Assembly (NCBI GenBank): GCA_965198115.1
Contig: OZ240241.1
Coordinates: 8,032,001 to 8,096,000 of the forward strand
Length of the DNA: 64,000 nucleotides
Source of the DNA: Candidatus Latescibacterota bacterium
GTDB taxonomy: Bacteria > Latescibacterota > UBA2968
Direction: 5' to 3'
A program made the translations under genes and the position numbers. Shown here in pieces: positions 10,996-61,803 of the stretch (the stretch's first letter is position 1; every line of letters starts with the position of its first letter). The notes under the pieces are model-generated. The model was not told the DNA's origin and made no database searches. It saw nothing but the letters and a program-made list of their open reading frames with translations.

Positions 10996-12415
10996 GGCTC
11001 TATCCGGGTTTCTCAACGGTGAAACTATAGAATGACAAGGTCATAGATCGTTCCCTACGCTTGGTTGTGTGTGTAGGACAATCAAAGCGAAGGGGGTGCG
11101 ACCTATGACCGGGAGCAGATTACTATCGAAACTGCTGAGATTCAAGGGGTTCCGTGTTGTCAGCTGGTGGTTTGAGGGGAGAAGCTGCTTCGTCATCGCC
11201 GTAAAGCCACATAAGAATGGTTGTTGTTGTCCGGAGTGCGGCCGTCGAGGTAAAATCGTCCGCACAATGCCCCATCCGCGTCGGTGGCGTGACATTCCGG
11301 TGTGCGGGTGGAGGGTCTGGCTTCTCTACCATCCTCGGGAGATTCGGTGTCCTACCCACGGTCGTGTGGTCGAGGAGATTCCGTGGGCGGAGCGGTTCTC
11401 TCGGGTGACGTATCGCTTCGAGTATGCCATGCTGCGCTACTGCCAGACCATGACGCAGAAGGCGGCGTCCGAGTTACTGCGCATCTCTGCCTCGACGCTG
11501 TCGGATCTCCTTCACCGATCCATCACGCGGCTTCGTGAAGGTCATCGTATCCGAGGGCTCAAAACCATCGGGATCGACGAGATCTCCTACGCCAAGCGTC
11601 ACAGGTACGCCACGCTCGTTTACGATCTGGACCGCTCCTGCGTGGTGTGGGTTGGCCGCGGCAGGGCGCGTAAAACGATCGATCGGTTCTTCACAGAGGC
11701 TCTCAGTCCCTACCGGAGATCCAAGATCGAGTGGGCCTGCTGCGACATGAGCGAAGCTTACATCGGAGCCATCCAGGAACACTGTCCGAATGCCAAGCTG
11801 GTCCTCGATCGCTTTCACATCGTCAAGGCTCTCAATGCCGCCGTTGACGAGGTCCGTAAGGACCAGTGGCGTAAAGCTGCCCCGGATGAGCGCAAAGCCA
11901 TGAAGGGCCTCCGATGGCTCCTCTACCGGCACTCAGCGACACGCTCCAGAGGGGATACTCGGACACTCAAAGCACTGGAGAAGGCGAACTACCGAATCTA
12001 TAGAGCCTGGAGACTCAAGGACGAGTTCGAGCAGTTCTGGGAATACAAAGCGCCCTGGGCTGCCGAACGCTTCCTGAAATGCTGGACGACGTCCGCACTC
12101 AGAAGTCGACTTGAACCCCTGCGAAAGTTCGTCAGGACCCTGCGACAGCACTTCTTCGGCGTCCTCGCATTCGTGAACACGCGTCTTACCAACGCCATCG
12201 CCAAAGGCCTCAACCGAATCGTCCAAATCGTCAAGAACCGAGCCAGCGGATTCCGCACACTCGACGCATTCAACGATATGATCTTCCTTACCGTCGGAGA
12301 CATAAACATCCCTGAGCAGATTCCGAAGAGGTTCCGCACACGCTAACCGCGCCCCCATGCCAGGAACCACGGCACCTTCACCCACTTCATCTCGTTGAGA
12401 GATCCGAATATAGCC
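10996..12415 (+). mobile_element. ISL3-family IS, copy 2 (transposase 11069-12346)
   Basis: Near-identical to 1048-2467; 8-bp TSD ATAAATAA at 10988-10995 and 12416-12423. Confidence 0.95.
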
Positions 12416-12983
12416 ATAAATAAACGGTCGATCTCAATGTTGAGCCATTGGCCGGATCGTGTAGTTCCAGTCGCCGTGGAAATCGTGCGGAGTGAGATCG
12501 ATTTGGGTCATCTGTTCATCGGTCACCTTGACCCCGTTAGGGTAGGGTCGCTTGTCGATCTCGGAGCGTACTCGGAGACCGGCTTGAGTGGTCGTTCCGG
12601 CAATGAGATTCACGGTTGCAGCCAGGCTGACCAGGGGCTTGCCTCGCCAGTTCATAGCGATGAAGGAGAACAGGCGATGTTCGATCTTGTTCCACTTACT
12701 AGTGCCAGGAGGGTAGTGGCATACGGTGATCGTCAGGCCAGTGCGATTCGCAAAGCGCTGCAGCTCCCACTTCCACAGCCGCGTCTTGGCGCCGTTGCTG
12801 CCGCCTGCGTCCGCCGTGATTAGCAGATGCGTCGAAGTGCCGTAGGCGGGCCGTCCCATGTTCTTCCACCAACTTCGGATCGCATTCACGGCGAAGCTGG
12901 CCGTGTCGTGATCGATACCGACACTTACCCAGCCTTCATCACGGCTCAGATCATACACTCCATAAGGGATCGCCTTGCCCTGA

Positions 12984-14277
12984 GGATTTGCCACGAAATA
13001 AGTGCTGCACTTTTCAAGGTAATGATCTTACGCTCGGAGTGTGGACGTCGAAACTCTCCGAACGAAGTATGAAGCCTTGGCTCCGGTGCTGACGGAACGC
13101 ACGCGTCGTCTGTGGGCCGCCACGGAAGCCGAAGCGTTGGGTCACGGTGGGATCGCGATTGTGGCTCTGGCGACAGGAATGTCCAGAGAGCGGATCTTTC
13201 GTGGCATTCAGGAGTTGAGGTCGGACGAACCTTTGGACCCGGCTCGCATCCGGCGTCCAGGCGGCGGTCGTAAGCGGAAGGCCGACACGGACCCGACGCT
13301 GTGGCAGGACCTGAATGATCTGGTCGAGCCAACGACTGCGGGGTCGCCTGACGACAATCCTCTGAGATGGACATCGAAGAGCACTCGCAAACTGGCCGCC
13401 GAGTTGCAAGCGATGGGGCATTCGGTGAGCCCCAGGATCGTTGCCAATCTCCTGCACGAACACGATTACACGCTGCAGGCGAATCGGAAGACAAGGGAGG
13501 GATCTGCACACCCGGATCGGGACGCTCAGTTCGTTTACCTCGATGATCGGATTAGCCAGCAGCAGCAGCAGGGCCTTCCCGTTATCTCGGTGGACACCAA
13601 GAAGAAAGAGTTGATCGGCGACTTCAAGAATCCTGGCCGAGAATGGCGACCCAAGGGAGACCCGGAGCGTGTGAAGGTACACGATTTCATAGTGCCTGCT
13701 CAGGGCAAGGCGATCCCTTATGGAGTGTATGATCTGAGCCGTGATGAAGGCTGGGTAAGTGTCGGTATCGATCACGACACGGCCAGCTTCGCCGTGAATG
13801 CGATCCGAAGTTGGTGGAAGAACATGGGACGGCCCGCCTACGGCACTTCGACGCATCTGCTAATCACGGCGGACGCAGGCGGCAGCAACGGCGCCAAGAC
13901 GCGGCTGTGGAAGTGGGAGCTGCAGCGCTTTGCGAATCGCACTGGCCTGACGATCACCGTATGCCACTACCCTCCTGGCACTAGTAAGTGGAACAAGATC
14001 GAACATCGCCTGTTCTCCTTCATCGCTATGAACTGGCGAGGCAAGCCCCTGGTCAGCCTGGCTGCAACCGTGAATCTCATTGCCGGAACGACCACTCAAG
14101 CCGGTCTCCGAGTACGCTCCGAGATCGACAAGCGACCCTACCCTAACGGGGTCAAGGTGACCGATGAACAGATGACCCAAATCGATCTCACTCCGCACGA
14201 TTTCCACGGCGACTGGAACTACACGATCCGGCCAATGGCTCAACATTGAGATCGACCGTTTATTTATTCGCGAACCC
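12984..14277 (+). mobile_element. ISAzo13-family IS, inner intact copy
   Basis: Ends GGATTTGCCACGAAATAA and TTATTTATTCGCGAACCC; TSD TGA at 12981-12983 and 14278-14280. Confidence 0.95.
13041..14249 (+). CDS. ISAzo13 (Rhodopirellula-type) DDE transposase
   Basis: ISVDTKKKELIG, ITADAGGSN and PPGTSKWNKIEHRLF motifs. Confidence 0.95.
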   Translation: MDVETLRTKYEALAPVLTERTRRLWAATEAEALGHGGIAIVALATGMSRERIFRGIQELRSDEPLDPARIRRPGGGRKRKADTDPTLWQDLNDLVEPTTAGSPDDNPLRWTSKSTRKLAAELQAMGHSVSPRIVANLLHEHDYTLQANRKTREGSAHPDRDAQFVYLDDRISQQQQQGLPVISVDTKKKELIGDFKNPGREWRPKGDPERVKVHDFIVPAQGKAIPYGVYDLSRDEGWVSVGIDHDTASFAVNAIRSWWKNMGRPAYGTSTHLLITADAGGSNGAKTRLWKWELQRFANRTGLTITVCHYPPGTSKWNKIEHRLFSFIAMNWRGKPLVSLAATVNLIAGTTTQAGLRVRSEIDKRPYPNGVKVTDEQMTQIDLTPHDFHGDWNYTIRPMAQH

Positions 14278-15200
14278 TGAGCAGGCACTATGAAATCGTG
14301 TACCTTCACACGCTCCGGGTCTCCCTTGGGTCGCCATTCTCGGCCAGGATTCTTGAAGTCGCCGATCAACTCTTTCTTCTTGGTGTCCACCGAGATAACG
14401 GGAAGGCCCTGCTGCTGCTGCTGGCTAATCCGATCATCGAGGTAAACGAACTGAGCGTCCCGATCCGGGTGTGCAGATCCCTCCCTTGTCTTCCGATTCG
14501 CCTGCAGCGTGTAATCGTGTTCGTGCAGGAGATTGGCAACGATCCTGGGGCTCACCGAATGCCCCATCGCTTGCAACTCGGCGGCCAGTTTGCGAGTGCT
14601 CTTCGATGTCCATCTCAGAGGATTGTCGTCAGGCGACCCCGCAGTCGTTGGCTCGACCAGATCATTCAGGTCCTGCCACAGCGTCGGGTCCGTGTCGGCC
14701 TTCCGCTTACGACCGCCGCCTGGACGCCGGATGCGAGCCGGGTCCAAAGGTTCGTCCGACCTCAACTCCTGAATGCCACGAAAGATCCGCTCTCTGGACA
14801 TTCCTGTCGCCAGAGCCACAATCGCGATCCCACCGTGACCCAACGCTTCGGCTTCCGTGGCGGCCCACAGACGACGCGTGCGTTCCGTCAGCACCGGAGC
14901 CAAGGCTTCATACTTCGTTCGGAGAGTTTCGACGTCCACACTCCGAGCGTAAGATCATTACCTTGAAAAGTGCAGCACTTATTTCGTGGCAAACCCTAAA
15001 CAGCAATTTACACCTTCGCGCCTGCGTGCACGCACGAAAGAGAACGAGATGAGCACGTGGCCGACATCCGACGATACGACAACGGCACACGCGTAACCGA
15101 CATCGTTGCTTTTCTGCACGTGAAACTGCTGACGGGCCGACCCGGTCATGAGTCAGTGAACCCCTGAACGTAGAGGACACTGATTGTCTGGAGGGTCGTC

Positions 15201-17617: not shown

Positions 17618-18196
17618 TCAATCTTCCCTCTGCGGGTAAGCCGCATCCACGACAGCCAACGCCTTCTTCACACCTGCGTTCAAAGCCCTCACAGATAGCG
17701 TCGCCCCCGTCACGCCAATGATGTCACGGTTGATCCTAATCGAGCTCTTCAAGCCTTTGCCTCGATACTGCCTCAGGAAACGCTGACGACGGACCTCGCC
17801 CCCACGCGATTCCCTATAAACCATCACGTGCACCGCTTCGACTTTTCGATCCTCGTCGATCTTCGTCAGAAAGGTAATTGGTCTGTAAAGCCCGATCTCG
17901 TTGCTGACAATCGCAAATCCCATCGGCTTGCCACCCCCAACTCCTCGGTGAATCGTGTAGGTCGAGTCGACCACGCGCCACCCAAGACGTCGCTCTAGCG
18001 CCCGAAGGTCTTCTCGCTCGGCCGTCCTCGTTTCCGCCCAAACGGTATCCGCCTCTTCGAAGACCTCTTCCAGCGCTTCCTCAAGGGTCAGGTAAACGAC
18101 GATGTGTTCCGGACCATCCGGACTCTCCGCAGGAAGCTGCGCGCTGGCATCGATCGCCAGACAGAACGTCAATAGGAGAATCAGATCACTTCCCAC
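17618..18196 (-). CDS. Periplasmic FMN-binding (flavinylated) protein
   Basis: Signal peptide; YRESRG...FLRQYRGK...DIIGVTGATLS matches the [S/T]GA[S/T] flavinylation motif. Confidence 0.9.
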   Translation of the reverse strand: MGSDLILLLTFCLAIDASAQLPAESPDGPEHIVVYLTLEEALEEVFEEADTVWAETRTAEREDLRALERRLGWRVVDSTYTIHRGVGGGKPMGFAIVSNEIGLYRPITFLTKIDEDRKVEAVHVMVYRESRGGEVRRQRFLRQYRGKGLKSSIRINRDIIGVTGATLSVRALNAGVKKALAVVDAAYPQRED

Positions 18197-18324: not shown

Positions 18325-19473
18325 TCAGAAGTACGTCGACACCGAAAAAAAGAACCGCCCTGCTACGCCGCCTCGAGCCCCGTTGGCCGGTGTCTTCCAG
18401 ATCGACGCATAGTCGAACTTGAACACCGCGTCCTCGACCGGGCGGAAGTTGAGGCCCAACGTCAACCCCAGCTCGGAGTCGCCCTTCGCGTCCGTGTCGT
18501 AGTCCACCCAATCCCATCGGACCACACCCGTGAAGACCGAGCCGGGCAGGAAATGATCGTGACCGAAGTGGACATTCGCCTGTCCGTATGCGCCTTGCTG
18601 TGACTCCGCCGTGGCTGGATGGGCTGTCAGGTCGACATCCGCGGCGACCCGTCCGTACTCACCCTGCACCTCCCAGATACCTCTGACGACCTTCGCGTCG
18701 AGCCCGAGAATCGTCAGGTTGTGATCGCCTGCGTCGTCGTAGGCTCCTGTGTGAATCGATGCACCGAAGTTCATGCCCAACCGTGGACTCAGCCCGAATC
18801 GGGCGGTGACCGCCTTGTTCTGGTTGTTGTCGCTCTTCTGACTTCCACGCCCACCTCGAACGCGAAGTCCGCCGGAACTGCTGATGACCTTGTCGTTGAA
18901 CCCATTGACGACGTAGATCTCGTAAGACGCCACAGAGAGTTCGGAGGGGTAAAAGGTCCCGTAAAAACCCATCCCCGATTCGCTCAACGTCGATGGCATG
19001 ATCTGCCGGTTGACCGTCGGACGTTCGGTCAGGTCGTTGAGCGGACTGTCGTGCAGCAGATTGAAGACACCCAGCGGAGCGAGAATGACACCGCCACGAT
19101 AGTTGAAGCTTTCGGTGAACTCGAAGTCCATCACGGCATACTCGAGCTTGATCTCCCCGTCCGTCGTCCCTCCTCCCTTGACGAAGCCGCCGTGTTCGAA
19201 CTCAATCTCCGCCGTCACCCGGACCCGATTGCTGACCTGACCGTAGATGAAAGGAATGAACCGATGCTGATCGAACGTGCTCTTTCCCCCCTCGTTCCAC
19301 TCGAATTCGTGGTCCAGGTAACCCCCGATCGTCACCCCGCGACCGGCGCGCCTCAGGTAGGGTTTGTCGTAGATTCCCCCCGGTAGCTCCGGACGGGGTT
19401 CCTTCTCCTCACCGACCGAAGGGGACGGCAGGGTGAAGAACAGCCCCAGGAGAACCAGAAATGCCCGCGACAT
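18325..19473 (-). CDS. Outer-membrane porin (OprO/P-like beta-barrel)
   Basis: RBS GGAGG; signal peptide; EIEFEHGG...EIKLEYA; alternating beta pattern; C-terminal YF. Confidence 0.8.
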   Translation of the reverse strand: MSRAFLVLLGLFFTLPSPSVGEEKEPRPELPGGIYDKPYLRRAGRGVTIGGYLDHEFEWNEGGKSTFDQHRFIPFIYGQVSNRVRVTAEIEFEHGGFVKGGGTTDGEIKLEYAVMDFEFTESFNYRGGVILAPLGVFNLLHDSPLNDLTERPTVNRQIMPSTLSESGMGFYGTFYPSELSVASYEIYVVNGFNDKVISSSGGLRVRGGRGSQKSDNNQNKAVTARFGLSPRLGMNFGASIHTGAYDDAGDHNLTILGLDAKVVRGIWEVQGEYGRVAADVDLTAHPATAESQQGAYGQANVHFGHDHFLPGSVFTGVVRWDWVDYDTDAKGDSELGLTLGLNFRPVEDAVFKFDYASIWKTPANGARGGVAGRFFFSVSTYF

Positions 19474-19513
19474 CCGCCACCTCCGAAACCCATTTGTTAT
19501 GCTAGTCATACTT

Positions 19514-19573
19514 ATGTTTTATATGCCAAACATCTGATAACTTCATTATACACGCGGGCTATACCTGTGTCAA
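19514..19573 (-). promoter_or_regulatory. Sigma70 promoter plus palindromic operator for the porin operon
   Basis: TTGACA-17-TATAAT on the minus strand (19573-19545); palindrome ATGTTT-N8-AAACAT at 19514-19533. Confidence 0.85.
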
Positions 19574-19589
19574 CCCGATTTTTCACGAA

Positions 19590-21467
19590 TTACCCTCCCA
19601 ATCCGACCATCGACGTCACCTGAAAGACCGCGAAGGCTCCGACATAGGCGAGGATCGTCATGTACATGAAGGAGAACCCCGCCCATCCCCACGATCCGGA
19701 TTCGCGGCGTATGACCGCCAGCGTCGACGAGCATTGAGCGCATAGCGCAAAGAAAACCATCACCGACAGCGCGACCGGAATCGTGAACGCGGGGCTTCCG
19801 TCTTCCCGCCGCGCATCGATCAGCGCGCTCTTCAGCGATTCCACGTCCTCGCCTCGATCCTCCACGCTGTAGATCGTCGCCAAAGAAGCCACGACAATCT
19901 CCCGAGCAGGAAAAGCGCTCAAAGAGGCAACCGCCAAACGCCAGTCCCACCCAAGGGGTTCGACGGCCGGCTCGATCAGACGTCCCGCCCGACCGAGGAA
20001 GCTGTTTCGGAGGACGGCAGTCTCATCAGCCCCGCCCCGCGGAAACGTGGCAAGCGCCCAGATAATCAATGAAGCAACGAAGATGACCGTGCCCGCCCGG
20101 CGCAGAAAAGCGTGGCACGCGTGGTAGACGCGAAGCCAGATCGTGCGCGCGTTCGGAACCTTGTAGGATGGCAGTTCCATCAGGAAAGGACCGGACGTTC
20201 CTCTGAGCGTCGATCGCTTCAGGATCCTCGCCACGGGTATGGCGACGACGATTCCCAACAGGTAGAGTCCCATCATCGTCAGACCCTGAAGGCCAATCCA
20301 CCCACCGATCGCAATGTTCGGGATGAACGCCGCGATGAACAGCGTATACACCGGAAGACGAGCCGAGCAACTCATAAGCGGAGCGACGAGGATCGTAGCC
20401 AGTCGATCTCTCCGGTCTTCGATCGTTCGGGCGGCCATGATGCCCGGCACCGCACAGGCGAAACTGCAAAGCATGGGAATGACCGAACGACCGGACAGAC
20501 CGCACCACCGCATCAGACGGTCCATCAACAAAGCCGCCCTCGGCATGTAGCCACAATCTTCCAGGACCGAAATCGCGAAGAACAGGAAGGCGATCTGAGG
20601 AAGGAAAATCACGACGCTGCCGACACCCGCGACCGCTCCGTCGACCACCAGACTTCGCACGAGACCTCGCGGGACGTAAGCACCGATCCAGTGCCCCAGT
20701 GTCGCCACCGTTCGGTCGATCACATCCATCACCGGCGCCGACCAGCTGAAAATGGCTTGGAAGACGATCAGCATGACGGCGAAGAAAACGACGGATCCGT
20801 AAACGGGATGGGTCACAACCCGGTCGACACGATCGGAACGACTGTCGAAGAGTCCCTCCGGGCGGGTGACGGCTCCGTCGAGAATCGTGTCGATCCAAGT
20901 CTCCGAATCAGACTCGGGTGAGGACATCGGTTTCCGGGGCGATCGTAAGCAGGCGATCAGGTCCTCGATACCCTCGCGTCGAGTGGCGCAGACCTCCACC
21001 ACGTCGATTCCAAGACGGGCAGCGATGCGTGCACAGTCGACGGCAATACCCTTCTGTCGGCCGATATCGACCATGTTGATGGCCAGAACGCAGGGCAGAC
21101 CCGTTTGCACGACCTCGGCAACGAGGTTGAAGTTTCTTTTCAGATGAACAGCGTCGACGACAATCAGGACTGCGGAGAGGGGACGCTCGTCTTCGAGCCG
21201 GTTTTGGAGGACTTCCCCGACGACTCTTTCGTCGGGCGAACGACCCGTAAGCGTGTAGCTCCCGGGAAGGTCAAGGAGGTCGAGGTGGAATCGGTCGGCT
21301 ACACGGAGGCTGCCTTGTTTGCGCTCGACCGTCACACCCGCGTAGTTGCCGACCCGCTGATGCATTCCGGTCAGAGCATTAAAAAGGGTCGTCTTACCCG
21401 TATTTGGGTTTCCGACGACCCCGATGAGTGGCGACTCGGTGTCCGCCTCTTTAAGGGAAGGGTTCAC
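19590..21467 (-). CDS. feoB: Ferrous iron transporter B
   Basis: GNPNTGKT, NYAGVT, DLPG and NMVD GTPase motifs; LEDCGYMPR and MSCSARLP gate motifs. Confidence 0.95.
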   Translation of the reverse strand: MNPSLKEADTESPLIGVVGNPNTGKTTLFNALTGMHQRVGNYAGVTVERKQGSLRVADRFHLDLLDLPGSYTLTGRSPDERVVGEVLQNRLEDERPLSAVLIVVDAVHLKRNFNLVAEVVQTGLPCVLAINMVDIGRQKGIAVDCARIAARLGIDVVEVCATRREGIEDLIACLRSPRKPMSSPESDSETWIDTILDGAVTRPEGLFDSRSDRVDRVVTHPVYGSVVFFAVMLIVFQAIFSWSAPVMDVIDRTVATLGHWIGAYVPRGLVRSLVVDGAVAGVGSVVIFLPQIAFLFFAISVLEDCGYMPRAALLMDRLMRWCGLSGRSVIPMLCSFACAVPGIMAARTIEDRRDRLATILVAPLMSCSARLPVYTLFIAAFIPNIAIGGWIGLQGLTMMGLYLLGIVVAIPVARILKRSTLRGTSGPFLMELPSYKVPNARTIWLRVYHACHAFLRRAGTVIFVASLIIWALATFPRGGADETAVLRNSFLGRAGRLIEPAVEPLGWDWRLAVASLSAFPAREIVVASLATIYSVEDRGEDVESLKSALIDARREDGSPAFTIPVALSVMVFFALCAQCSSTLAVIRRESGSWGWAGFSFMYMTILAYVGAFAVFQVTSMVGLGG

Positions 21468-21769
21468 GCAGCACGTGCTTCAGCGACCACGGGTTCTACC
21501 GTGATCCGCCGAGCATCTTCCTCCCTCAGACAAAACCGGCCCCCCTCGGTGTGCACGACCACAGCTGTCCCGCGTCGTAGGAGACGCACAGCGACACCCG
21601 GCACGATTCCGACGGCGCGAAGCCGATCCGATAAACCGTTCGATGAGTCGATCGCTAACACGGTCGCCAGTTCCTGAGTCTGGAGGTGGTTCAGATGAAG
21701 CGGTTTATCATTTTGGCGCAGATCGTCATCAACCAGCCGGATGAACCCTAACACGTCGTTTCTCCTCAT
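21464..21769 (-). CDS. feoA: Ferrous iron transport protein A
   Basis: RLRAVGIVPGVAV...FCLREEDARRITV; 4-bp overlap with feoB. Start is uncertain. Confidence 0.85.
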   Translation of the reverse strand: MRRNDVLGFIRLVDDDLRQNDKPLHLNHLQTQELATVLAIDSSNGLSDRLRAVGIVPGVAVRLLRRGTAVVVHTEGGRFCLREEDARRITVEPVVAEARAA

Positions 21770-21820
21770 TATAATAGATCCATGGGCGAGCAGCGGCCCA
21801 CAATTAGCCTTGCAAAGCGG

Positions 21821-21880
21821 TTGTTTGGCTAATCAAACATCTGGTGACTGAACAATACCGCACCCTTTGGACCGTGTCAA
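21821..21880 (-). promoter_or_regulatory. Sigma70 promoter plus palindromic operator for feoAB
   Basis: TTGACA-17-TATTGT on the minus strand (21880-21852); palindrome TGTTTG-N6-CAAACA at 21822-21839. Confidence 0.8.
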
Positions 21881-21894
21881 CAAGAATGTGGTCC

Positions 21895-22374
21895 TTATCC
21901 GAGATCCCGGTCGACCAGAAACAGACCGTATTTGTCGTCGCCCACGAGCTTTAGCTTTTGAACGATGTCTCCAACGTGCGCCTCTTCCTCGACCTGGCGT
22001 TCCACAAACCATCTTAAAAAGTTGTCCGTCGCGTGGTCGCGCTCCGCTAGGGCCACATCAACGAGGTCATTGATCATTCCGCTAGCCCGTTGCTCCTCTT
22101 CATAAGAATCCAGGATCGCGACAATCGGAGACTCCCACCTGTCCGGGGGTTCGGAGATCAGATGGAGACCCACCTTGCACCCGCGTTCGTGAATGAAATC
22201 GTAGATGCGGAGCGCGTGACCTCGTTCTTCCTGGTACTGGCTCCGTGCCCACTTGGCAAAGCCGTTCAGGTTCTCCACCCGAAAGTAGGACTCCATCGCG
22301 AGGTAATGATACGCGGAGTGAAACTCGTGGTTCATCTGGGTGTTCAGTGCATCCAGAACCTTCTCGTTGATCAT
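21895..22374 (-). CDS. ftnA: Non-heme ferritin 1
   Basis: HEFHSAYHY, EERGHA and WFVERQVEEE ferroxidase motifs. Confidence 0.95.
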   Translation of the reverse strand: MINEKVLDALNTQMNHEFHSAYHYLAMESYFRVENLNGFAKWARSQYQEERGHALRIYDFIHERGCKVGLHLISEPPDRWESPIVAILDSYEEEQRASGMINDLVDVALAERDHATDNFLRWFVERQVEEEAHVGDIVQKLKLVGDDKYGLFLVDRDLG

Positions 22375-22553
22375 TTCGACCCCCAGAACTCCGTGGTCAA
22401 ACGTTTACCCGCTCAGCGAAAGTGTAGGGACCGAAGACAGAAGGTCAAGGAAAAAGTCGTCTTCACCAGCCGGCGAAACGGTTTTGTCCCTCGTAACGTT
22501 TTGTGTATACTGGAACCTCTTGCGCTCCAGTATTTAGTACGATGGAGAAGATC

Positions 22554-23081
22554 ATGATCTCCGACAGAATGTTGCAGGCCCTGAACGATCATCTGAACAT
22601 CGAATTCCAGGCGGCCTACTATTATCTGGCTATGTCTGCCTTTTTCCTGCGGAAGGATTTCAACGGCTTCGCACAATGGATGCGCGCGCAGCACGGCGAG
22701 GAAATGGTCCACGCCATGAAGTTCTACGACTTCATCGACGATCGGGACGGCGCGATCGAGATGAAGCCGATTCAGGGCGAAGAAACGGCCTGGGACAGCC
22801 CCCTCCACGCCTTCGAAAGCGCGCTGGCTCGCGAGCGAGACGTCACTTCTAAAATTTACGATCTGGTGGACCTGAGTCACGAACTACGCGATCACGCCTC
22901 GAACACGTTTCTCCAATGGTTCGTGACCGAGCAGGTCGAAGAAGAGGCCACGGCCACGGACATCATCCAGCAGCTCAAGCTGATCGGTGACGACGGAAAT
23001 GGGCTCTTTATGCTCGATCGGGAACTGGGTCAAAGAAGCGGCGTCACCGCCGAAGACGAAGCTGGCGCACATCCGGCCTGA
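22554..23081 (+). CDS. ftnA: Non-heme ferritin 2
   Basis: IEFQAAYYY, EEMVHA and WFVTEQVEEE; RBS GGAG. Confidence 0.95.
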   Translation: MISDRMLQALNDHLNIEFQAAYYYLAMSAFFLRKDFNGFAQWMRAQHGEEMVHAMKFYDFIDDRDGAIEMKPIQGEETAWDSPLHAFESALARERDVTSKIYDLVDLSHELRDHASNTFLQWFVTEQVEEEATATDIIQQLKLIGDDGNGLFMLDRELGQRSGVTAEDEAGAHPA

Positions 23082-23278: not shown

Positions 23279-24261
23279 ATGTCAGACTTCAGCCGTGTCA
23301 TCGGCAAGAGCCCTGTAATCCAGGAACTCCTCGATCTTATTGAGCGCGTCACGAGGAATCCTGAGATTTCGGTCTTGATCTGCGGGGAAAGCCAGGACTT
23401 CTTTGCCGGTTCCTGGCCAGAACGATTCACGAGAACAGCGCGGTCGGCGACGAGTTGTTCGTCGAAGTCAACTGCGCCGTCATTCCCGAGCATCTGCTCG
23501 AGTCCGAGTTGTTCGGATACGAAAAGGGCGCCTACACCGGTGCCGATCGTCGAAAACGTGGACTTTTCGAGTTGGCCGACGGTGGCACACTCCTGCTCGA
23601 CGAGATCGGCTACATGAGCTTGGCGCTCCAGGCGAAGCTTCTCAAAGCGATCGAAGAAAAGACCTTTCGCCGCCTGGACCTGGGTGGCGAGCTCGAAGTC
23701 CAGGTCAAGGCACGCATCATCGCCAGCACGAACATCGACCTCGAAGCGGCAATGTCCGAGCAGAATTTTCGCGATGACCTTTACTATCGGCTGAATGAAA
23801 TCCAGATCACCTTACCGCCGCTACGGGAGCGTGGTGAGGACGTCATTCTCCTGGCGGAAAACTTCATAGAGGAATTCGCACGGACGTATAAACTCGGTCA
23901 ACGAACCCTGGCCGAGACGTCCAAGCAGCTGCTACGAGAATATCACTGGCCGGGTAACGTACGCGAGCTCCGGAACGCAATTAAACGTGCGATGATCATG
24001 CACGACGCAGAGACGCTGCAACCCGACATGGTGCCGGTCAGTATTCGCACCACGAATTCGTTGGCCACACAGCGTTGGAACAGCAATCAGCTCGTGATTG
24101 ACATACCCGACGACGGCGTTACCTTTGAGGAAGTCGAAAGACGCGTCATCGAGCACACGCTCAAGTCGACCGACTGGAACAAGAACAGATCAGCGAGGAT
24201 GCTGAAGATTTCCCGACCTCGCCTGCTTCGAAAGATCGAAAAATACGAACTTGAACCATAG
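23279..24261 (+). pseudogene. Sigma54-dependent enhancer-binding protein (AAA+ and Fis HTH), frameshifted at Walker A
   Basis: VIGKSP...VLICGES in frame 2; VNCA, ESELFG, GAYTGA, LLLDEIG, WPGNVREL and HTH in frame 1. Confidence 0.9.
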
Positions 24262-26088: not shown

Positions 26089-28869
26089 TCATTCAGCATC
26101 CCGGTCGGAAACCATATAGTGCTCGCGCTGATGCTCCAGCACAGAGGCCGTCACCGCAACGACCGTCGGCACATCTGACCCATACGTTTCCTGCAGGCGC
26201 TCGAGCGTCGACGGTCCGTCCAGTTCGGGCATCAGCATGTCCATGAAAATGATGTCGGGCATTCGATCGGTCACGCGTTCCAGGGCTTTGACCCCGTTTT
26301 CGGCCACTTCCACGTCCACCCCGACTTGCCTCAGGAATCTGGCAAGCAGCTCGCGGTTCGTTTCGACGTCATCCACGACGAGGGCGTGCACCGTAGAGCC
26401 CGGCGCCAAGCGCTCCACTCGGGTCCAACTGGAAGTTTCATCGACTGCGACCGGATCTCGAGCCGGCTCAAAGGGAATCGTGAAGAAGAATCGGGCCCCC
26501 TCGCCCGGCTGCGATTCCAGCTGGATCCGGCCACCCATCAGCTCCACCTGCCGGCTGGCAATCGCTAAACCAAGGCCCGACCCTCCCTCACGAAGCCCCT
26601 CGCTGTCCTGCTGAAACGGTTCGAAGATCGAGACCTGCCTGTCCTGGGCAATACCTGGACCGGTGTCGGAGATGTCGAAAGTGACCTGCCCTTCTTCGAG
26701 AGATGTGACGCGAAGTAAGACTCCACCTTCAACCGTAAATTTGACCGCATTCCCCAGCAGGTTGATCAGCACCTGTCTCAGCTTCCCCTCGTCGCCGTGG
26801 ACGGCCAGGGTTTCGATCTGACTCTCGAAGCACCACGTCAGGTCCTTCTGCGCGCAGCGAACCGCGAACATCGATTCGGTGCTCTGAAGGATCGCCCCCA
26901 GATCGAAGTCGGCGAGGCGCAACACCTCCCGCCCGGCTTCGATCTTCGAAATGTCCAGGATGTCATTGATCAGCGTAAGAAGGTGGTTGCCGCTGTTCTC
27001 GATCGTGACGATCGCTCTCCGCTGCGAATCGCTGACGTCTGGGTCTCCTTCCAGGATCTGCGCGTAGCCGAGGATCGCGTTCAAAGGTGTGCGGATTTCG
27101 TGTGACATGCTCGCCAGGAAGACGCTCTTGGCGTTGTTCGCCTCCTCCGCAGACACCCTTGCCTCCTTCAGCGCCTCTTCGAATCGTTTTCGCTCTGTGA
27201 TATCTCGAAACGTGCCGACGTAGAAATCGTTCTCACCCGTCTCCGCGTGGGTGAGCGACACCTCCATCGGAAACGTCGTGCCATCTTCTCTCCGCCCCAC
27301 CGTCTCACGATGCCCCTCGTGTAGGATGATGTCCGGGATGGTCGATGATCCGGTCCCGTGCCCGTCGAAAAGCATCGTCACGGGCTGACTGACCAGTCGG
27401 TCCTGACTGTAACCGAAAATCAGCTCAGCCGCAGGATTCAGACTCAGGACGGAGAACGTGTCTTTCGCGAAAGTGATCACGCCGTCCATCGCACTGCGAA
27501 CGGTGGCCTCCGTCCTCGCCGTGGCCCGCTCCAGTGCTTCCATCACGGCGTTGTAGCGGTTCGCAATCTGTCCAACTTCCGTAAAGGGTTCGACGGGCAC
27601 GCGCAGATCGAGTTCACCCGTTCGCGACTGATGTTCCATGACCCTGAAGAGGTCGATCAACTCGGTCGTCGCACCGTGTTCGGAGATGTTCAGTCCGTCC
27701 GTCTCCTGTTCGGGCGTCACGCGAAGGGGGGAGAGACGATCGACCAGTCGGAGTACGATGGTGGTCACGCCGAACGCCCACGCACCGCAGACGAGCACCC
27801 CCTCGACCTGCGCCTGAAGCTGCTCCATCAGACCGAGGTTCGTTCCCAGGCGGTCCAGGTCACCGAACAACGCGACGGCGATCGTCCCCCAGATACCAGC
27901 CGCCAAGTGGACGGGAACGGCCCCTACAGCGTCGTCGATCCGGCATCGTTCCAGCAGAACTTCCGCCCCCACCATCACGACACCGCCCACGACGCCGATG
28001 ATCACGGCAGACGGAGTCGAAACCGCGAGAGCACCTGCCGTGATCGCGACGAGTCCCGCCAGCGAACCGTTCAGGATCGAACCCACATCTGCTCGGCCCC
28101 GTCTCAACCACCCCAACCCCATCGCAGCCACGAGCCCCGCACCTCCCGCGAACACCGTGTTGGCGATTACCCCCGGCACGTCTTCGTTCATCGCCAGCGT
28201 GCTGCCACCGTTGAATCCGAACCATCCGAGCCATAGGAGGACCACTCCTAGCGCTGCCGTCGGAAGGTTGGCACCCGGTACCTGACGGGAAGAACCGTCG
28301 TCGGAGAAGCGGCCGGTGCGCGGTCCGATGATCAGCAGGATCGCAAGGGAACACTAGCCGCCCACGCTGTGGACCACCGTCGACCCGGCAAAGTCGAAGA
28401 ACCCACGATGTGCGAGCCACCCGGTTGCCGAAGCGGTCTGGACACCATTCCAGGCCCAGTGCCCGAAAACCGGGTAGACGATGCCCGAAACGACCGCCGC
28501 GACGACAAGGTAGCTGGCAAACCGCATCCGCTCCGCCACTGCACCCGAAACGATCGTTACAGCCGTTCCGCAGAACATCGCCCCGAACAACAGAAAGGCC
28601 GCGGTCCATCCGTTTTCGCCACCGAGGTTCGGGACGAAACTGGAAGTTCCGATCCATCCCGCGCTCGAGGCACCGAACATCAGGCCGTATCCCAGTGCCC
28701 AGTAGAGAACGACCGACATCCCAAGATCGGCAAGGTTCTTCACAGCAACGCTGATGTTGTTCTTGCTGCGAGTCAGACCAGTTTCAAGACAGAGGAATCC
28801 CCCCTGCATCAGGAAGACGAACCCCGCGCAGACCGAGACCCAGAGAATGTCGACCAGCGATTTTTCCAC
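26089..28869 (-). pseudogene. amt: Ammonium transporter-PAS-histidine kinase-receiver fusion with in-frame TAG at 28354-28356
   Basis: FLMQGGF...DFAGSTVVHSVGG*CSL...GPRTGRF...LWLGWFGFNGGS; PAS; FLASMSHEIRTPL; NAVKFT; GLGL; REC (IFMDMLMP) truncated before the KP lysine. Confidence 0.88.
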
Positions 28870-29012
28870 CTGCTTAACCTCAGCTAAGTCTTTATATCGT
28901 TCGTCCTGCTTTGCATTCAGGTCCAACGAGCCTAAAGGTCCGGAAAGCGAACAGACCCTGCAAATGCATATTCCAACAGACTTCGCTCATCTCATTTCCC
29001 ACGGGTACAAGA

Positions 29013-55342: not shown

Positions 55343-56637
55343 GGGTTCGCGAATAAATAAACGGTCGATCTCAATGTTGAGCCATTGGCCGGATCGTGTA
55401 GTTCCAGTCGCCGTGGAAATCGTGCGGAGTGAGATCGATTTGGGTCATCTGTTCATCGGTCACCTTGACCCCGTTAGGGTAGGGTCGCTTGTCGATCTCG
55501 GAGCGTACTCGGAGACCGGCTTGAGTGGTCGTTCCGGCAATGAGATTCACGGTTGCAGCCAGGCTGACCAGGGGCTTGCCTCGCCCAGTTCATAGCGATG
55601 AAGGAGAACAGGCGATGTTCGATCTTGTTCCACTTACTAGTGCCAGGAGGGTAGTGGCATACGGTGATCGTCAGGCCAGTGCGATTCGCAAAGCGCTGCA
55701 GCTCCCACTTCCACAGCCGCGTCTTGGCGCCGTTGCTGCCGCCTGCGTCCGCCGTGATTAGCAGATGCGTCGAAGTGCCGTAGGCGGGCCGTCCCATGTT
55801 CTTCCACCAACTTCGGATCGCATTCACGGCGAAGCTGGCCGTGTCGTGATCGATACCGACACTTACCCAGCCTTCATCACGGCTCAGATCATACACTCCA
55901 TAAGGGATCGCCTTGCCCTGAGCAGGCACTATGAAATCGTGTACCTTCACACGCTCCGGGTCTCCCTTGGGTCGCCATTCTCGGCCAGGATTCTTGAAGT
56001 CGCCGATCAACTCTTTCTTCTTGGTGTCCACCGAGATAACGGGAAGGCCCTGCTGCTACTGCTGGCTAATCCGATCATCGAGGTAAACGAACTGAGCGTC
56101 CCGATCCGGGTGTGCAGATCCCTCCCTTGTCTTCCGATTCGCCTGCAGCGTGTAATCGTGTTCGTGCAGGAGATTGGCAACGATCCTGGGGCTCACCGAA
56201 TGCCCCATCGCTTGCAACTCGGCGGCCAGTTTGCGAGTGCTCTTCGATGTCCATCTCAGAGGATTGTCGTCAGGCGACCCCGCAGTCGTTGGCTCGACCA
56301 GATCATTCAGGTCCTGCCACAGCGTCGGGTCCGTGTCGGCCTTCCGCTTACGACCGCCGCCTGGACGCCGGATGCGAGCCGGGTCCAAAGGTTCGTCCGA
56401 CCTCAACTCCTGAATGCCACGAAAGATCCGCTCTCTGGACATTCCTGTCGCCAGAGCCACAATCGCGATCCCACCGTGACCCAACGCTTCGGCTTCCGTG
56501 GCGGCCCACAGACGACGCGTGCGTTCCGTCAGCACCGGAGCCAAGGCTTCATACTTCGTTCGGAGAGTTTCGACGTCCACACTCCGAGCGTAAGATCATT
56601 ACCTTGAAAAGTGCAGCACTTATTTCGTGGCAAACCC
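55343..56637 (-). mobile_element. ISAzo13-family IS, copy 3; transposase disrupted (CAG>TAG at 56056-56058, +1 C near 55586)
   Basis: Same TIRs as the other copies; TSD TAA at 55340-55342 and 56638-56640. Confidence 0.95.
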
Positions 56638-56654
56638 TAAGCTGGAGGATCCCC

Positions 56655-58103
56655 ATGAACCGACGTTTTCAGATCCTGGCTATCTCCCTTTCGCTCGCTT
56701 CGTTACCGACCGAGGCTGCCGACAAGGTTCCGATCACGACCTCGTCCCCAGCCGCGCTCGAGAGCTACCTCCAGGGACGCGATCTGGCGGAAAAACTCCG
56801 GGGTCAGGAGGCCCGAGCTCATTTCGAAAAAGCCATCGAGCTCGATCTGGACTTTGCAATGGCCTATCTGTCGGGCTCCCTCACCCGAGCCACCGCAAGG
56901 GAATTCTTCGAACATCTGGAAGCAGCCGTCTCGAAGGTCGATAAGGTATCCGATGCGGAGAAGAATTGGATCCTCGGTTTCCAGGCAGGCGTGAACGGAG
57001 AAACGGCCCGACAACGCGAACACTACGAGGCGCTCCTGGCGGCTTACCCGAGCGACGAACGCGCACACAATCTCTTCGGCAATCATTGGTTCGGTCAGCA
57101 GGAGTGGACAAAGGCGATCCAATCCTACGAACGCGCCACGACGATCGACCCCGACTACACACAGAGCTACAATCAGATGGGCTATGCGCGTCGGTTCCTC
57201 GAAGATTTCGAGGGGGCCGAGAGAGCCTTCGAAAAATACATCTCGTTAATCCCCGACGACCCCAATCCCTACGATTCTTATGCCGAACTTCTGATGAAAA
57301 CGGGAAAGTATGAGAAGTCGATCGAGAATTACAAGAGGGCGCTACAATCCGACCCTTATTTCGTGGCCTCTCACATCGGCATCGCAACCAACCTGAACTA
57401 CCTGGGCCGTCACAAAGACGCACGGAAGCAGCTGAAGGAAATGCAGAAACAGGCACGCGATGACGGCGAACGACGGGGGGCCCTGTTCGCCATCGCCATC
57501 TCCCATTTGGATGAGGGAAGTGTCGAGCACGCGATCGCTTCCATCCATCAGGAACAGATGATCGCGGAAAAACACGATGATGCCGGACTGAAGGCGGGAG
57601 ACCTCATCAACATCGGCAACATCTTGCTGGAGACGGGCAAGCCGGCGGAAGCACTCGCCCTATTCGCTGAGGCGCTGGCAACGATGAGAGCATCGGAACG
57701 TTCGGACAAGGTCAAGGCCACCGCGCTCCGAGTATTCCACTACAACGCCGCCCGCGCCGAGATTGCCAGGAGCAGCTTCAACGCAGCGGGGGCCCACATC
57801 GCCGCCCTCGACCGAGAGAGCGTGGCCCTCGAGAATCCCTTCCTCACGCGCCAGGTGCACGAATTGCGGGGCACGCTCCATCTCGCTCGAGGCGAGTTCG
57901 GCGATGCTGATGCGCAGCTCCAGGGTGCGAATCAGCAAAATGCTTACAACCTCTACCGCATCGCGCTCGCCCACAAAGGCCAAGAAGATCTGGCCACGGC
58001 CAGGCATTGGCTCGAGAAGACGGTCAACTTCAACGCGCTGAACAGCCTGAATTACGCGATGGTTCGACACAAGGCCCAACGCACACTGGACGAGATGAAC
58101 TTA
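56655..58103 (+). CDS. Exported TPR protein; native 3' end replaced by IS630 (reads on to 58172)
   Basis: RBS GGAGG, signal peptide and multiple TPR motifs. Confidence 0.85.
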
Positions 58104-59364
58104 GTACTCCTGTTCGCAAATACGGTGACGTATTCTAAGCAGACTTTGCCAAGGGCGTATCGTAGAACCTGAGTTTGTCGATCATCTCCGCGAGATCTGT
58201 TCGTGTGAACTTCCATTTGAAGGGTGTGGCGATACGTCCGTAGCGTTCCTGAAAACCGAGGATTCTTGCCTCAAGCTCTTCGAGCGATGCAAATTCGATA
58301 GGTGTCAGAGCCTTGCGTTTGAGGATCGAGAAGTAGATCTCGATCTGATTGAGCCAGCTTGCGTGGATCGGAAGGTGAACGGGGTGGATGTTTGGCCACT
58401 TCCCCTGGATACGGTCGATGCATGTTTGCCCTCGGTGCGAGGAGCCATTATCCACGATGAGGTAGACTTTCTTTGCCGAGCAATAGGGTTTCCGGCTCAT
58501 GATCAGGCTCAGGAGCCGGTTGAAGGGCTCGATACCCGAAGAAGACTCACAGAGACCGAAGATTCGACCATTGTGCACGTCGAGAGCAGCCAGATAGGCC
58601 AGGGCTCCTTTCCGCTCGTATTCGTGTTCAACGCGTGCCGCTCTGTTCGAGGCTGGCGGTAGGGTAACGTGCTTGCGAGCTCGTGCTTGAATACTGGTCT
58701 TTTCGTCGGCAGAAAGTACATATTCCCTCGGCCCTAAAGGCTTTCCTTGCCATTGGCGGTGATACAGATCAAGGACTCTACCTGCTTTGGTTTGGAAGTC
58801 CGGGTCCCGTGGGAAAATCCAGGAGCGATGATACCAAGGACGAATCGCGTCCTCGTTCAACCAGCGCCAGACAGTGGCGCCGCTGATCTTGGCAACGAAG
58901 CCCCTTTGCACTGCCTCGGCGGCAATCTCGGAACAGCTGAACCGCGAGAGCGGTATCCCGCTCTCGCTCGGTAGTTCACACGCCAGCGCCTTGATCTGAA
59001 CGACCACCTGAGGGGGGAAAACCGGGCGGGCGCCCGGGACGAGATCTATCTTCGAGTCCCGAAAGACGCTCTTCGAAAAAGCGCTTACGCCATTTGCTTA
59101 CGATCGGACGCGGGACATCCAACCGTTGGGCGATAATCTTGTTGGATAATCCCTCGGCGGCGAGAAGCACGATTTTCGATCGGATCACTTGATAATACGA
59201 TAACGTATATTGTCCAGCCATTCGCTCGAGGTCGACCCGTTCCTTCTCAGACAGTAGCACCACATAAGGCGAACGTCTTGGCATTGTTCTCCTCCTTTTG
59301 AAGGAGAACATAAGTTACAAATAATGTTCAGAACATACGTAATAATGTTTATGAAACCATGCAC
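58104..59364 (-). mobile_element. IS630-family IS; two ORFs (59284-58976 HTH, 59007-58135 DDE) joined by probable -1 frameshift
   Basis: ADEKT, VDNGSSH and SWLNQIEIYF; slippery TTTTCCCCCC near 59011-59020; imperfect TIRs; TTA on both flanks. Confidence 0.88.
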
Positions 59365-61628
59365 TTAGTTTCTTCGGTTTTCCTTCGATCATCTCCAGCA
59401 ATTGCTCAGCTTCCGAAACAGTGTAGTATGGGTCTGACTTGCCCATTAGCATCAGGAAAGGACGCGCTCCAATCCCTCGAGCGAAATTGTGGGGCGATAT
59501 AACTGCCATTTCCGGTGGCTTCATGGCGTTCAGCGGGGTCACACAGACCACAGATGCCTTGATTCTTGGTTCACAGGCGTTGAGGCCGAATACGATGAGG
59601 CTTCCCATGCTCCACCCGAGTACGGCAATGCGTTTTCTATCGATCTCAGGTCGAGTTTCGAGGTAGTCGATTGCCCGACGGTGTTCCACCGTGGTCTGCA
59701 GAATCATCTCTCGCGAGCGGTTGTACCACTTGTCCCGGGCCCACATATCCCTGGGACTTTCGTAGTCGTTCTCGACGATTCTCTCTCCATGATACTTTTG
59801 CATCCAATGTGAGAACGGCAAAGCCAGCGGCAATCAGTTGCTTGGTGACCTTGCCGCCATAGTTGAACGAGTCATGAGCTATAATCAAAAGGTGTGGAAA
59901 AAGAGAAAGGGCGACCCTACCCTTCCCGTGAGATAGTTGATTCACACAAAACCGGGTGAGAGGCCCGGTTGGGAAGGAGGATCGCCGTGAAGGAACATAC
60001 GCATAGAGCCCCATTGAAGTCCATGCCGACGTGGGAGACGGTTGACGATTGGATCCGTGAAGAGATCCAGGGCCGGTTCCAGTTCATTCTGGAGGAGGAG
60101 GCGACCGCGTTCTTGGGCCGGTCGTGGTATGAGCGCCGAGCCGAGGTCGATAGCTCCAGGGGCTACAGGAACGGCTACGGCAAGCCCCGGCGTCTCTCGA
60201 CGAGCTGCGGAACGATCAAGGTCCGGCGTCCCCGGGTTCGTGGTCTGGAAGAGCGGTTTGAAAGCCGCATCCTCCCCCTGTTCGCCCGGAGAACCAGGGC
60301 CATTGGAGATCTGCTTCCCGACCTTTATCTCCACGGTCTCTCCCAGGGCGACTTCGAGTTGTCTTTGCGTGCGCTGCTCGGTGATGGCGCGCCGCTTTCG
60401 CCGACCTCGATCGCTCGTCTTCGAGGGAAGTGGGAGGTCGACTTCCAGGACTGGAAAGAAAGGCGTCTGGATAATCGCGAACTGGTCTACGCCTGGGCTG
60501 ATGGCATCTACGTCAAAGCCGGGCTCGAGCGCGAGAAGGCGTGTCTGCTGGTCGTGATCGGCGCGATGAGCGACGGCAGCAAGGAGATCCTGGCGATAGA
60601 ACCCGGTTATCGAGAGTCTACAGAATCCTGGCTCACGGTGCTCCGGGATCTCCGGGATCGCGGGCTCGAACATCCTGTCCTGATCGCCGCGGACGGGAAT
60701 ATGGGCATCTGGGCGGCCGTTGATCAGGTCTGGCCAGAGAGCCGGCAACAACGGTGCTGGAACCACAAGATCCTCAACGTGCTCGACAAGGTCGCCAAGC
60801 GTGCACAGGCTGAAGCCCGCGCACTGCTCGTCCAGATCCCCTATGCCGGCACGAAAAAGGAGGCCGAGAAGCTCCGGAAACGCTTTGCCGCACGGTATCG
60901 CTCACAGTTCCCTGCCGCCGTGGAGACGCTCGAAAGAGACTGGGATCGGATGGTCACGTTCTACGACTTCCCGAAGGAACACTGGAAACACCTGAGAACC
61001 ACGAACGTCGTCGAGAGCCCCTTTGCTTCCGTTCGGCTTCGCACAAACGCCGCCAGGCGATTCAAGAAAGTCAGGAACGCCACGACTCTCATCTGGCGTA
61101 CGCTCAAGGTCGCAGAGAGCCGATTCAGGAAACTCACCGCGCCACACTTGCTACAACAAGTCTACGATCAGAAACACTCAACCGGACCGCAGGTCGAAGC
61201 CGGGAAGATGGCCGCCTGATTTCTTTTACACACCTATTGACCTGAGCTCACGAGTCATCCCGCCACCAGTTCTCCTTCGTAGATGCCATTCCGTGGATCA
61301 GGATTACGCAGGGCGATGGCTCGGTGGCCGTCTTGGGTATTCCTATGTATCCTGGGACACGGCTGTCTCTGACTCCGTTGAAGACGATCTTCTCTTGGAT
61401 ATAGTCTGGGGCTTCCATCCTTCCCACCGTACGAGGTGAGAGTGGTATCCCTGGGTCGTAATCGTGGAATTGAAGGATCGTCTCGTAGGCTTCGTCGGAG
61501 TAAATGCGGTAGGAAGGTACTTCTCCCGTATCGGAGGGCGTGACATCTGCAGCAGATGATGGTGCCCAGATGGACACTGGGAGAATGAGGATGGTGATGA
61601 TGCGAGTGAGTCGACGTTGAAAATGCAT
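59365..61628 (-). pseudogene. Exported alpha/beta hydrolase split by IS256, frameshifted near 59798 and truncated by IS630
   Basis: N-part ILIHG...WWRDDS joins FNYGGK across the TSD; GWSMG nucleophile elbow; GKSD. Confidence 0.85.
59876..61249 (+). mobile_element. IS256-family IS (transposase ~59987-61219)
   Basis: TIRs GAGCTATAATCAAAAGGTGTG / GAGCTCAGGTCAATAGGTGTG; 9-bp TSD ACGAGTCAT; WADG, ADG, QRCWNH and TTNVVES. Confidence 0.95.
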
Positions 61629-61645
61629 ATCATTTCTCCCATTTC

Positions 61646-61785
61646 ATATATCGGTCGAAATTTGCGACGGTTGCCGTCCCGAAGGGTGTGGCGCGGGACT
61701 TGCGTAAGCAAGGCCCGTGACAAAAGGCAACTGTGCCGAAGGCCGAAGGAAGCGAAGCGACCAGGGCGAAAATTGTCTGTTACAC
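61646..61785 (-). other. Degenerate integron attC-like site
   Basis: Minus strand GTGTAAC...AATTTTCGC...inner stems...GCAAATT...GATATAT, about 140 bp, immediately before the hydrolase RBS. Confidence 0.55.
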
Positions 61786-61803
61786 GCTGGCGGCGCGCCC
61801 CCA

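Follow-up and report, generated by a model that had tools for sequence, protein, structure and literature searches.

According to a current review, iron is regulated by Fur in most Gram-negative bacteria, where DtxR proteins serve manganese instead (PMC10317159). Co-repression by DtxR-family proteins is already a known class of mechanism (PMC11672702), as described for IdeR/DtxR of Actinobacteria with the iron box TTAGGTTAGSCTAACCTAA (PMC8464063, PMC10317159). IdeR reads DNA at Ser37/Pro39/Thr40/Gln43 (PMC8464063) and requires a T in its box half-site (bioRxiv 10.64898/2026.10.05.756664), and Cys at position 102 marks IdeR where Glu marks MntR (PMC10317159). Here, a stretch of 64,000 nt (the window) from a Candidatus Latescibacterota bacterium (GCA_965198115.1, contig OZ240241.1, positions 8,032,001 to 8,096,000 of the forward strand) was analyzed, in which the promoters of feoA-feoB and of a porin operon carry the same palindrome, the TGTTT box. 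Judged by sequence comparison, these sites are probably copies of one operator of an iron-dependent repressor, DtxR-B, which would act on iron-uptake genes in place of Fur.

A shared palindrome in the porin and feoA promoters

The promoters and boxes of the two operons were located in the window as follows.

21852..21880, minus strand: sigma-70-type promoter of feoA-feoB (TTGACA-17-TATTGT), by consensus match alone
21821..21840, no strand: predicted feoA-feoB operator box, palindrome TGTTTG-N6-CAAACA, 11 nt past the -10, 27.8 bits, genome rank 2
19545..19573, minus strand: sigma-70-type promoter of the porin operon (TTGACA-17-TATAAT, 12/12), by consensus match
19514..19533, no strand: predicted porin operator box 1, 11 nt past the -10, 27.9 bits, genome rank 1
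19494..19513, no strand: predicted weaker tandem operator box, 20 bp downstream of porin box 1, 17.0 bits, rank 8

Read along the minus strand, the feoA promoter consisted of TTGACA (21880-21875), 17 nt, TATTGT (21857-21852), 11 nt and a 20-mer (21840-21821), and the porin promoter of TTGACA (19573-19568), 17 nt, TATAAT (19550-19545), 11 nt and a 20-mer (19533-19514). An earlier inspection of the letters (the sequence-only reading) had placed both 20-mers and both TTGACA-17-TAT(AAT/TGT) promoters here, which was confirmed; its gap of 11 nt after the -10 held to the first base of each 20-mer, TGTTT itself beginning one base further. As it had also described, CAAACATCTG was common to both sites, and the tandem 18-mer of the porin promoter (start 19495, exactly 20 bp from box 1) was identical to the feoA site at 13/18 positions.

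The sites had been taken for a non-Fur operator, and this was borne out. The two sites matched the Fur consensus at no more than 11/19 and 9/19 positions, and searches of this single-contig genome (100% complete) with Pfam and controls, with tblastn and with a hidden Markov model of 11 Fur homologues from relatives detected no Fur. In a sample of 151 genomes of the phylum, Fur-family matches were obtained in 78 and DtxR matches in 142. Of the Fur homologues inspected, those of G069 and G140 precede, by eye, an apparent catalase-peroxidase start, and therefore not all Fur-family matches are iron sensors.

The box in relatives and its link to DtxR-B

Across the 8.43 Mb of the genome the bare pattern TGTTT-N8-AAACA was counted 4 times, and other spacers gave 0-6 copies, so it was not enriched and the motif required support from outside this genome. 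Counting bare patterns was abandoned as a test, since in AT-rich genomes the counts were about those of the reversed control and only promoter-anchored or matrix tests discriminated; a matrix based solely on the three sites of the window, being circular, gave way to one built on relatives. A porin homologue was matched in 89/151 genomes of the phylum. Unseeded palindrome discovery in the porin upstream regions of 18 relatives, with the present genome (G000) left out, returned TGTTT(T/G)-N6-(A/C)AAACA as the best motif, which is the conserved form of the box. The porin-trained matrix was made from 16 sites in relatives, selected by pattern after the de novo run and again without G000, and across the whole 8.4 Mb genome it ranked the window sites 1 and 2 (27.9 and 27.8 bits), the next site reaching 21.3 bits. 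The genome-wide matrix scan proposed by the sequence-only reading thus placed its two sites at the top, and the conservation it had called for was seen in 25 of the 29 orthologous porin upstream regions (14 were scanned for training; 11 of the 15 held-out regions, mostly from one genus, had the box). The same box stood upstream of feoA in G069, G140 and G059. In relatives the box was kept while flanking sequence had diverged, and its distance from the -35 was 36-39 nt in most.

Anchored to a promoter (TTGACA-N26-36-box), the pattern had exactly two sites in this genome, those of the window, and at least one site in 56 of the 121 genomes of the class; the reversed control gave 1 match in the 121. 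Around 113 oriented strong promoter boxes, secondary boxes of at least 8 bits fell at -20 bp (15), +20 bp (13) and +40 bp (5), with at most 2 at any other offset, and phased tandem boxes are therefore a general feature. That the match arose by chance, or is the remnant of a promoter duplication with no regulatory role, would agree with the lack of genome-wide enrichment and with a perfect match in G022 that belongs to an extended, terminator-like inverted repeat and was rejected as an operator. The top ranks by an independent matrix, the fixed -35 distance and the survival of the box between diverged flanks make the probability of this account negligible.

Three DtxR paralogues were found in this genome when the DtxR-family genes named in the sequence-only reading were looked for. 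DtxR-A (225 aa, with a FeoA domain) is nearest to MntR, is encoded behind troA, has acidic residues at both DtxR positions 10 and 102, and alone among the three has a DNA-binding domain that Pfam recognises. DtxR-C (344 aa) has an N-terminal hydrophobic stretch, and its gene precedes a second, split feoB. At the DtxR-C locus (G000:C1:5485731-5486765, L004) a likely membrane segment and two FeoA domains were observed, the feoB being split into GTPase and membrane genes; this layout is repeated in G105, and DtxR-C also occurs in G102. The paralogue linked to the TGTTT box is the following.

G000:C1:1232605-1233144, minus strand: dtxR-B, 179 aa

DtxR-B was present in 107/151 genomes of the phylum, in most as a single copy. 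With the porin-trained matrix, the box was found in the dtxR-B promoter at 25 of the 30 best phylum loci, with feoA adjoining. Among 79 GTDB loci, 57 had a box of at least 18 bits in the dtxR-B promoter, including 25 of the 36 classed outside Latescibacterota, whose titles read KSB1, Calditrichota, Planctomycetota, Kiritimatiellae, Acidobacteriota and others, six of them only "bacterium". In controls, 8 of 1580 shuffles reached 18 bits and none of 29 dtxR-A upstream regions reached 14 bits. DtxR-B occurred in 13 of 201 genomes of a Verrucomicrobiota sample, and 8 of these 13 loci had a box of at least 14 bits 39-47 nt upstream, compared with 2 among the other short DtxR loci, of which there were 17 before one was dropped for a stop codon and 16 after. 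The gene heads feoAB in families f1 and f2 and in KSB1 and Calditrichota records, and it heads the porin-FMN-PepSY operon in G009 and G002, where each genome has two copies and one of them is preceded by the box.

In family f4, all 3 genomes had DtxR-A, lacked DtxR-B and showed no promoter with box, and G102 and G107 had DtxR-A and Fur and no DtxR-B. In the latter two (L240, L241) the feoA-feoB promoter has a Fur-like TGAGAAT-G-AGTCTCA behind the -10, at the position of the DtxR-B box; this predicted exchange of boxes is a regulator swap within one class. At L311 and L312 (G020 and G004), fur is followed directly by a feoB-like gene and a DtxR-B box lies in the gap; in G020, fur itself is preceded by a Fur-like box, so that dual control by Fur and DtxR-B is possible at these loci. 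The co-regulation and the new metal-regulon motif proposed by the sequence-only reading are thus supported comparatively, by conservation and by a DtxR paralogue that appears tied to the box.

A transcription factor outside the DtxR family might bind the box, dtxR-B being merely one of its targets. TGT-N12-ACA geometry is used by other regulator families too, the dtxR-B promoters of this genome and of family f3 have no box, two Rrf2 genes are present in this genome, and a sigma-54 activator fragment adjoins the ferritins of the window. We consider this quite improbable, as box and dtxR-B co-occur in Latescibacterota, KSB1, Calditrichota, Planctomycetota, Verrucomicrobiota and Acidobacteriota records, and the box is absent where DtxR-B is absent (0/3 f4 genomes). 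Furthermore, the TTWG-N6-CWAA-like core is spaced as one DtxR dimer site (PMC8464063), and the feoA site is identical at 14/20 positions to the second, TTTAG-type box of this genome.

In this genome as in relatives, this second box (TTTAG-N6-CTAAA) stands upstream of troA, DHOR-porin2 and dtxR-C-feoB2, and it likely defines a manganese regulon.

G000:C1:1232512 (L002): TTTAG-N6-CTAAA site before DHOR-porin2-troA-dtxR-A
G000:C1:5486806 (L004): TTTAG-N6-CTAAA site before dtxR-C-feoB2

A third TTTAG-type site (G000:C1:3569765, 21.9 bits) was observed beside an insertion sequence (IS), before a small unannotated membrane protein. The matrices of the two box types did not cross-score, and the TTTAG-N6-CTAAA matrix gave the window sites -9.1 and -5.4. 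The sites of the window could alternatively be a divergent form of the own box of DtxR-A (MntR/TroR-like) or of membrane-anchored DtxR-C, and belong to a manganese regulon; the half-site spacing is the same, and DtxR-A alone has the recognised DNA-binding domain. This is very improbable given the separate TTTAG-N6-CTAAA box before the troA, DHOR and dtxR-C operons, the absence of the TGTTT box from G102 and G107 despite their DtxR-A, and the siderophore, TonB and Feo genes among the targets. The DtxR-family geometry noted in the sequence-only reading held up, with the refinement that the likely binder is DtxR-B, a short and divergent paralogue, and not the MntR/TroR-like paralogues, which go with TTTAG-N6-CTAAA.

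Protein, targets and predicted repression

DtxR-B matched PF02742 above the cut-off (E 3.4e-12) and did not match PF01325. Numbered after DtxR by equal-length spans in the alignment table, its primary metal site (DtxR 10/102/105/106) is His33, Cys125, Glu128 and His129, and this His/Cys/Glu/His set was invariant in 60/60 aligned sequences. Of the two sulfur ligands of IdeR, Met10 and Cys102, the Cys is kept and His stands in place of Met10; Arg102 stands at the ancillary His79/His77, and there is no SH3-like or FeoA domain. At the DNA-reading positions IdeR Ser37/Pro39/Thr40/Gln43, DtxR-B has Thr/Gly/Ser/Leu (Pro39 to Gly62, Gln43 to Leu66), and these changes fit a predicted box without the T that IdeR requires. 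The model of the orthologue L142, folded with an alignment, had a predicted local distance difference test score (pLDDT) of 90 and matched MntR/DtxR structures with template modelling (TM) scores of 0.85-0.88 (0.85 to 1on2). In a tree of 39 sequences, from which DtxR-C and several DtxR-A rows had been left out by a filter, DtxR-B formed one separate clade with 100/99 support and a long stem. At E<=1e-30 a profile search returned 96 clusters, and the majority of them share this His/Cys signature; of 13 cluster members listed, 2 had a name, generic in both cases.

A C-terminal tail of the form C-x(3-9)-C-x2-C-x(3-4)-C, a candidate Fe-S or Zn site, was found in 41 of 79 DtxR-B orthologues (L142:7001-7528 and 40 other loci). 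DtxR-B might then bind the box and yet sense an Fe-S cluster or another metal in this tail, or Mn or Co, rather than Fe(II) in the canonical way, which would agree with the loss of the ancillary site, with the change of Met10 to His and with the tail being the low-confidence part of the L142 model (pLDDT 65-76). However, the DtxR-B of this genome and 38 of the 79 orthologues have no tail and the box is still kept, the primary site is invariant and the targets are iron-uptake genes, which renders this account improbable.

The genes of the feoAB-porin locus are as follows.

21464..21769, minus strand: feoA, PF04023
19590..21467, minus strand: feoB, ferrous iron transporter, PF02421/PF07670/PF07664, TIGR00437 above cut-off
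18325..19509, minus strand: predicted outer-membrane beta-barrel, porin-like, weak PF21620 beta-barrel match below cut-off, porin function putative
17618..18196, minus strand: flavin mononucleotide (FMN)-binding protein, flavinylation substrate, TGAT motif at residue 163, PF04205
16819..17646, minus strand: PepSY-TM membrane protein, PF03929
15819..16835, minus strand: ApbE flavin transferase, PF02424

The porin-FMN-PepSY-ApbE genes lie directly downstream of feoA-feoB, and two ferritin genes lie upstream. Because the first ATG of the porin open reading frame (ORF) falls within the tandem box, translation likely starts at the ATG at 19473, which is preceded by a GGAGG site. The ferritin pair is divergent (window 21895-23081 and 23455-24261) and is followed by a sigma-54 activator fragment without N-terminus; at L284, a boxed TonB receptor is followed by a ferritin and a similar sigma-54-type activator.

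Twenty further promoter-and-box loci were taken from the TTGACA-N26-36-box list; 23 of their proteins were scanned with Pfam, and the others were assigned by visible similarity. These loci lead into TonB-dependent receptors (5), siderophore-interacting proteins (3), porin-imelysin-DHOR clusters (6) and a FecCD operon (1). Imelysin-like proteins have been linked to iron uptake (PMC3143127), and PepSY flavinylation clusters have been tied to iron reduction and are Fur-repressed in Shewanella and Caulobacter (PMC8238504). Within this genome, a PepSY-TonB-receptor pair (G000:C1:1449382-1452892) has three weak boxes upstream (9.6-11.9 bits), two of them 20 bp apart, and is likely a third target; its region (G000:C1:1449382-1453500) adjoins an IS. 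The predicted regulon as a whole points to iron, not manganese.

In the proposed mechanism, Fe(II) would bind DtxR-B at His33/Cys125/Glu128/His129, equivalent to the primary site of DtxR. The activated dimer would then occupy the box, at about +5 to +24 and overlapping the transcription start, and block RNA polymerase at both promoters, with a second dimer on the tandem box 20 bp away tightening repression. During iron shortage DtxR-B would be released, and the cell would express FeoAB jointly with the porin, PepSY and the flavinylated FMN protein. The flavinylated FMN protein and PepSY would form a periplasmic ferric reductase, making one reductive Fe(II) uptake pathway with the porin and FeoAB.

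Several observations weigh against control of these promoters by DtxR-B with iron. The dtxR-B promoter of this genome has no box (best -6.6 bits), and the gene lies 6.8 Mb from the window sites, beside a manganese-type cluster. A box of at least 14 bits was absent from all 20 loci surrounding dtxR-B in families f3 and f8 and at the second G095 copy, although in f3 the box is present in the feoA and porin promoters. In G059 (91% complete, 370 contigs) boxes were present and DtxR-B was not found. The matrix scan gave no box in the ferritin promoters of this locus, and of the 20 further targets two are fatty-acid desaturases and three were uninterpretable. Many loci are close kin, so the counts overstate independence. 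The loss of the ancillary site and the change of Met10 to His mean that metal specificity is not readable from the DtxR-B sequence. Finally, another short DtxR (helix TMPSV, Cys at 102) heads feoAB in families f9 and f10 (L221-L238) and in Verrucomicrobiota (L342-L357), and the TGTTAG-N6-CTAACA box at this type (dtxR-feoA-feoB in f10), which stands between the other two in form, in some cases reaches 12-17 bits with the TGTTT-box matrix; the border between box types is therefore graded.

Other features were observed alongside. At L286 and L296 the genes behind a strong promoter and box encode desaturases, one a membrane fatty-acid enzyme and one of acyl-ACP type, which are unexpected targets for an uptake repressor, and at L327 (Planctomycetota) a box lies between multiheme cytochrome c genes, divergent-looking and both on the minus strand. 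In the window, 11069-14939 and 56112-63146 are IS-dense, with part of an IS-type transposase duplicated in inverted orientation at 12434-14939, and 26089-28926 holds, by eye, an ammonium-transporter-like membrane domain fused to PAS/histidine kinase/receiver and split across several ORFs.

Comparison with known systems

DtxR-B shares with IdeR/DtxR the fold, the Cys102/Glu105-equivalent residues, the single-dimer half-site spacing and, by prediction, iron co-repression of uptake genes. It differs in the His for Met10, the missing ancillary His79 and SH3-like domain, the change of Pro39 to Gly and its Gram-negative hosts, and it reached 31 bits against an NCBIfam DtxR cut-off of 290. The TGTTT box has an A at position 3 in place of the T that IdeR requires, a half-site of (A/C)AAAC and a best identity of 12/19; whereas the IdeR 19-mer of four CCTAA repeats accommodates two overlapping dimers, the tandem boxes here are 20 bp apart. 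With the required T3 and Pro39 both changed, the pair would allow the IdeR readout model to be tested.

Among solved proteins, Bacillus MntR (PDB 1on1/1on2) is nearest in both sequence and structure, and it has the same short two-domain form (TM 0.85, 24% identity). DtxR-B differs from it by Asp8 to His, Glu11 to Ala, His77 to Arg and Glu99 to Cys and by targets for iron rather than manganese uptake. Its score was 55 bits against an NCBIfam MntR cut-off of 138, and it lacks the MntR/TroR marks, Asp/Asn at 10 and Glu at 102 being replaced by His and Cys. A palindrome of similar TGTT-N10-AACA shape may also be used by Corynebacterium MntR.

Haloferax volcanii TroR resembles the proposed DtxR-B in that it belongs to the DtxR family, regulates iron, coexists with several paralogues and has tandem motifs, but its motif TTTAGGC-NNN-CCTAAAA matches the TTTAG-N6-CTAAA box of this genome, not the TGTTT box (PMC10783522). 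The present genome would be a natural experiment in how DtxR paralogues are kept apart, with two non-cross-scoring boxes and different recognition helices. Akkermansia muciniphila Amuc_1082 resembles DtxR-B in being a DtxR that responds to iron and is encoded next to feo genes in a Gram-negative host; in the material covered no operator is shown for it and no DtxR-B signature peptides were found, and it may or may not be of the DtxR-B type (PMC12552655).

No description of the TGTTT-box operator, the DtxR-B subfamily or its Gram-negative role was found in the literature covered; the comparative DtxR regulon work of Leyn and Rodionov (2015), outside that coverage, may hold a related motif. A broader proposal, unlikely in its full extent, is that DtxR-B is a widespread iron-sensor subfamily that replaces Fur in several Gram-negative phyla, recognising a new operator by means of an altered recognition helix and binding in 20-bp-phased arrays, about half of its members reading Fe(II) together with Fe-S or redox status through the four-cysteine tail. 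For these uncultured lineages, electrophoretic mobility shift assays or reporters in a heterologous host would be a ready test.

The cluster of ApbE, FMN-binding protein and PepSY resembles the PepSY-like flavinylation systems tied to iron reduction and uptake (PMC8238504), but here it is joined to a porin and FeoAB and is not under Fur. The predicted regulon would give regulatory evidence that porin-FMN-PepSY-ApbE and porin-imelysin-DHOR clusters serve iron uptake. Compared with Fur, DtxR-B would fill the same role, and the Fur-like box of G102 and G107 occupies the same feoA-feoB position; however, the box sequence is unrelated and no Fur gene exists here. These comparisons suggested a multi-phylum exception to the rule of Fur for iron, with a named regulator, a predicted operator and a regulon.

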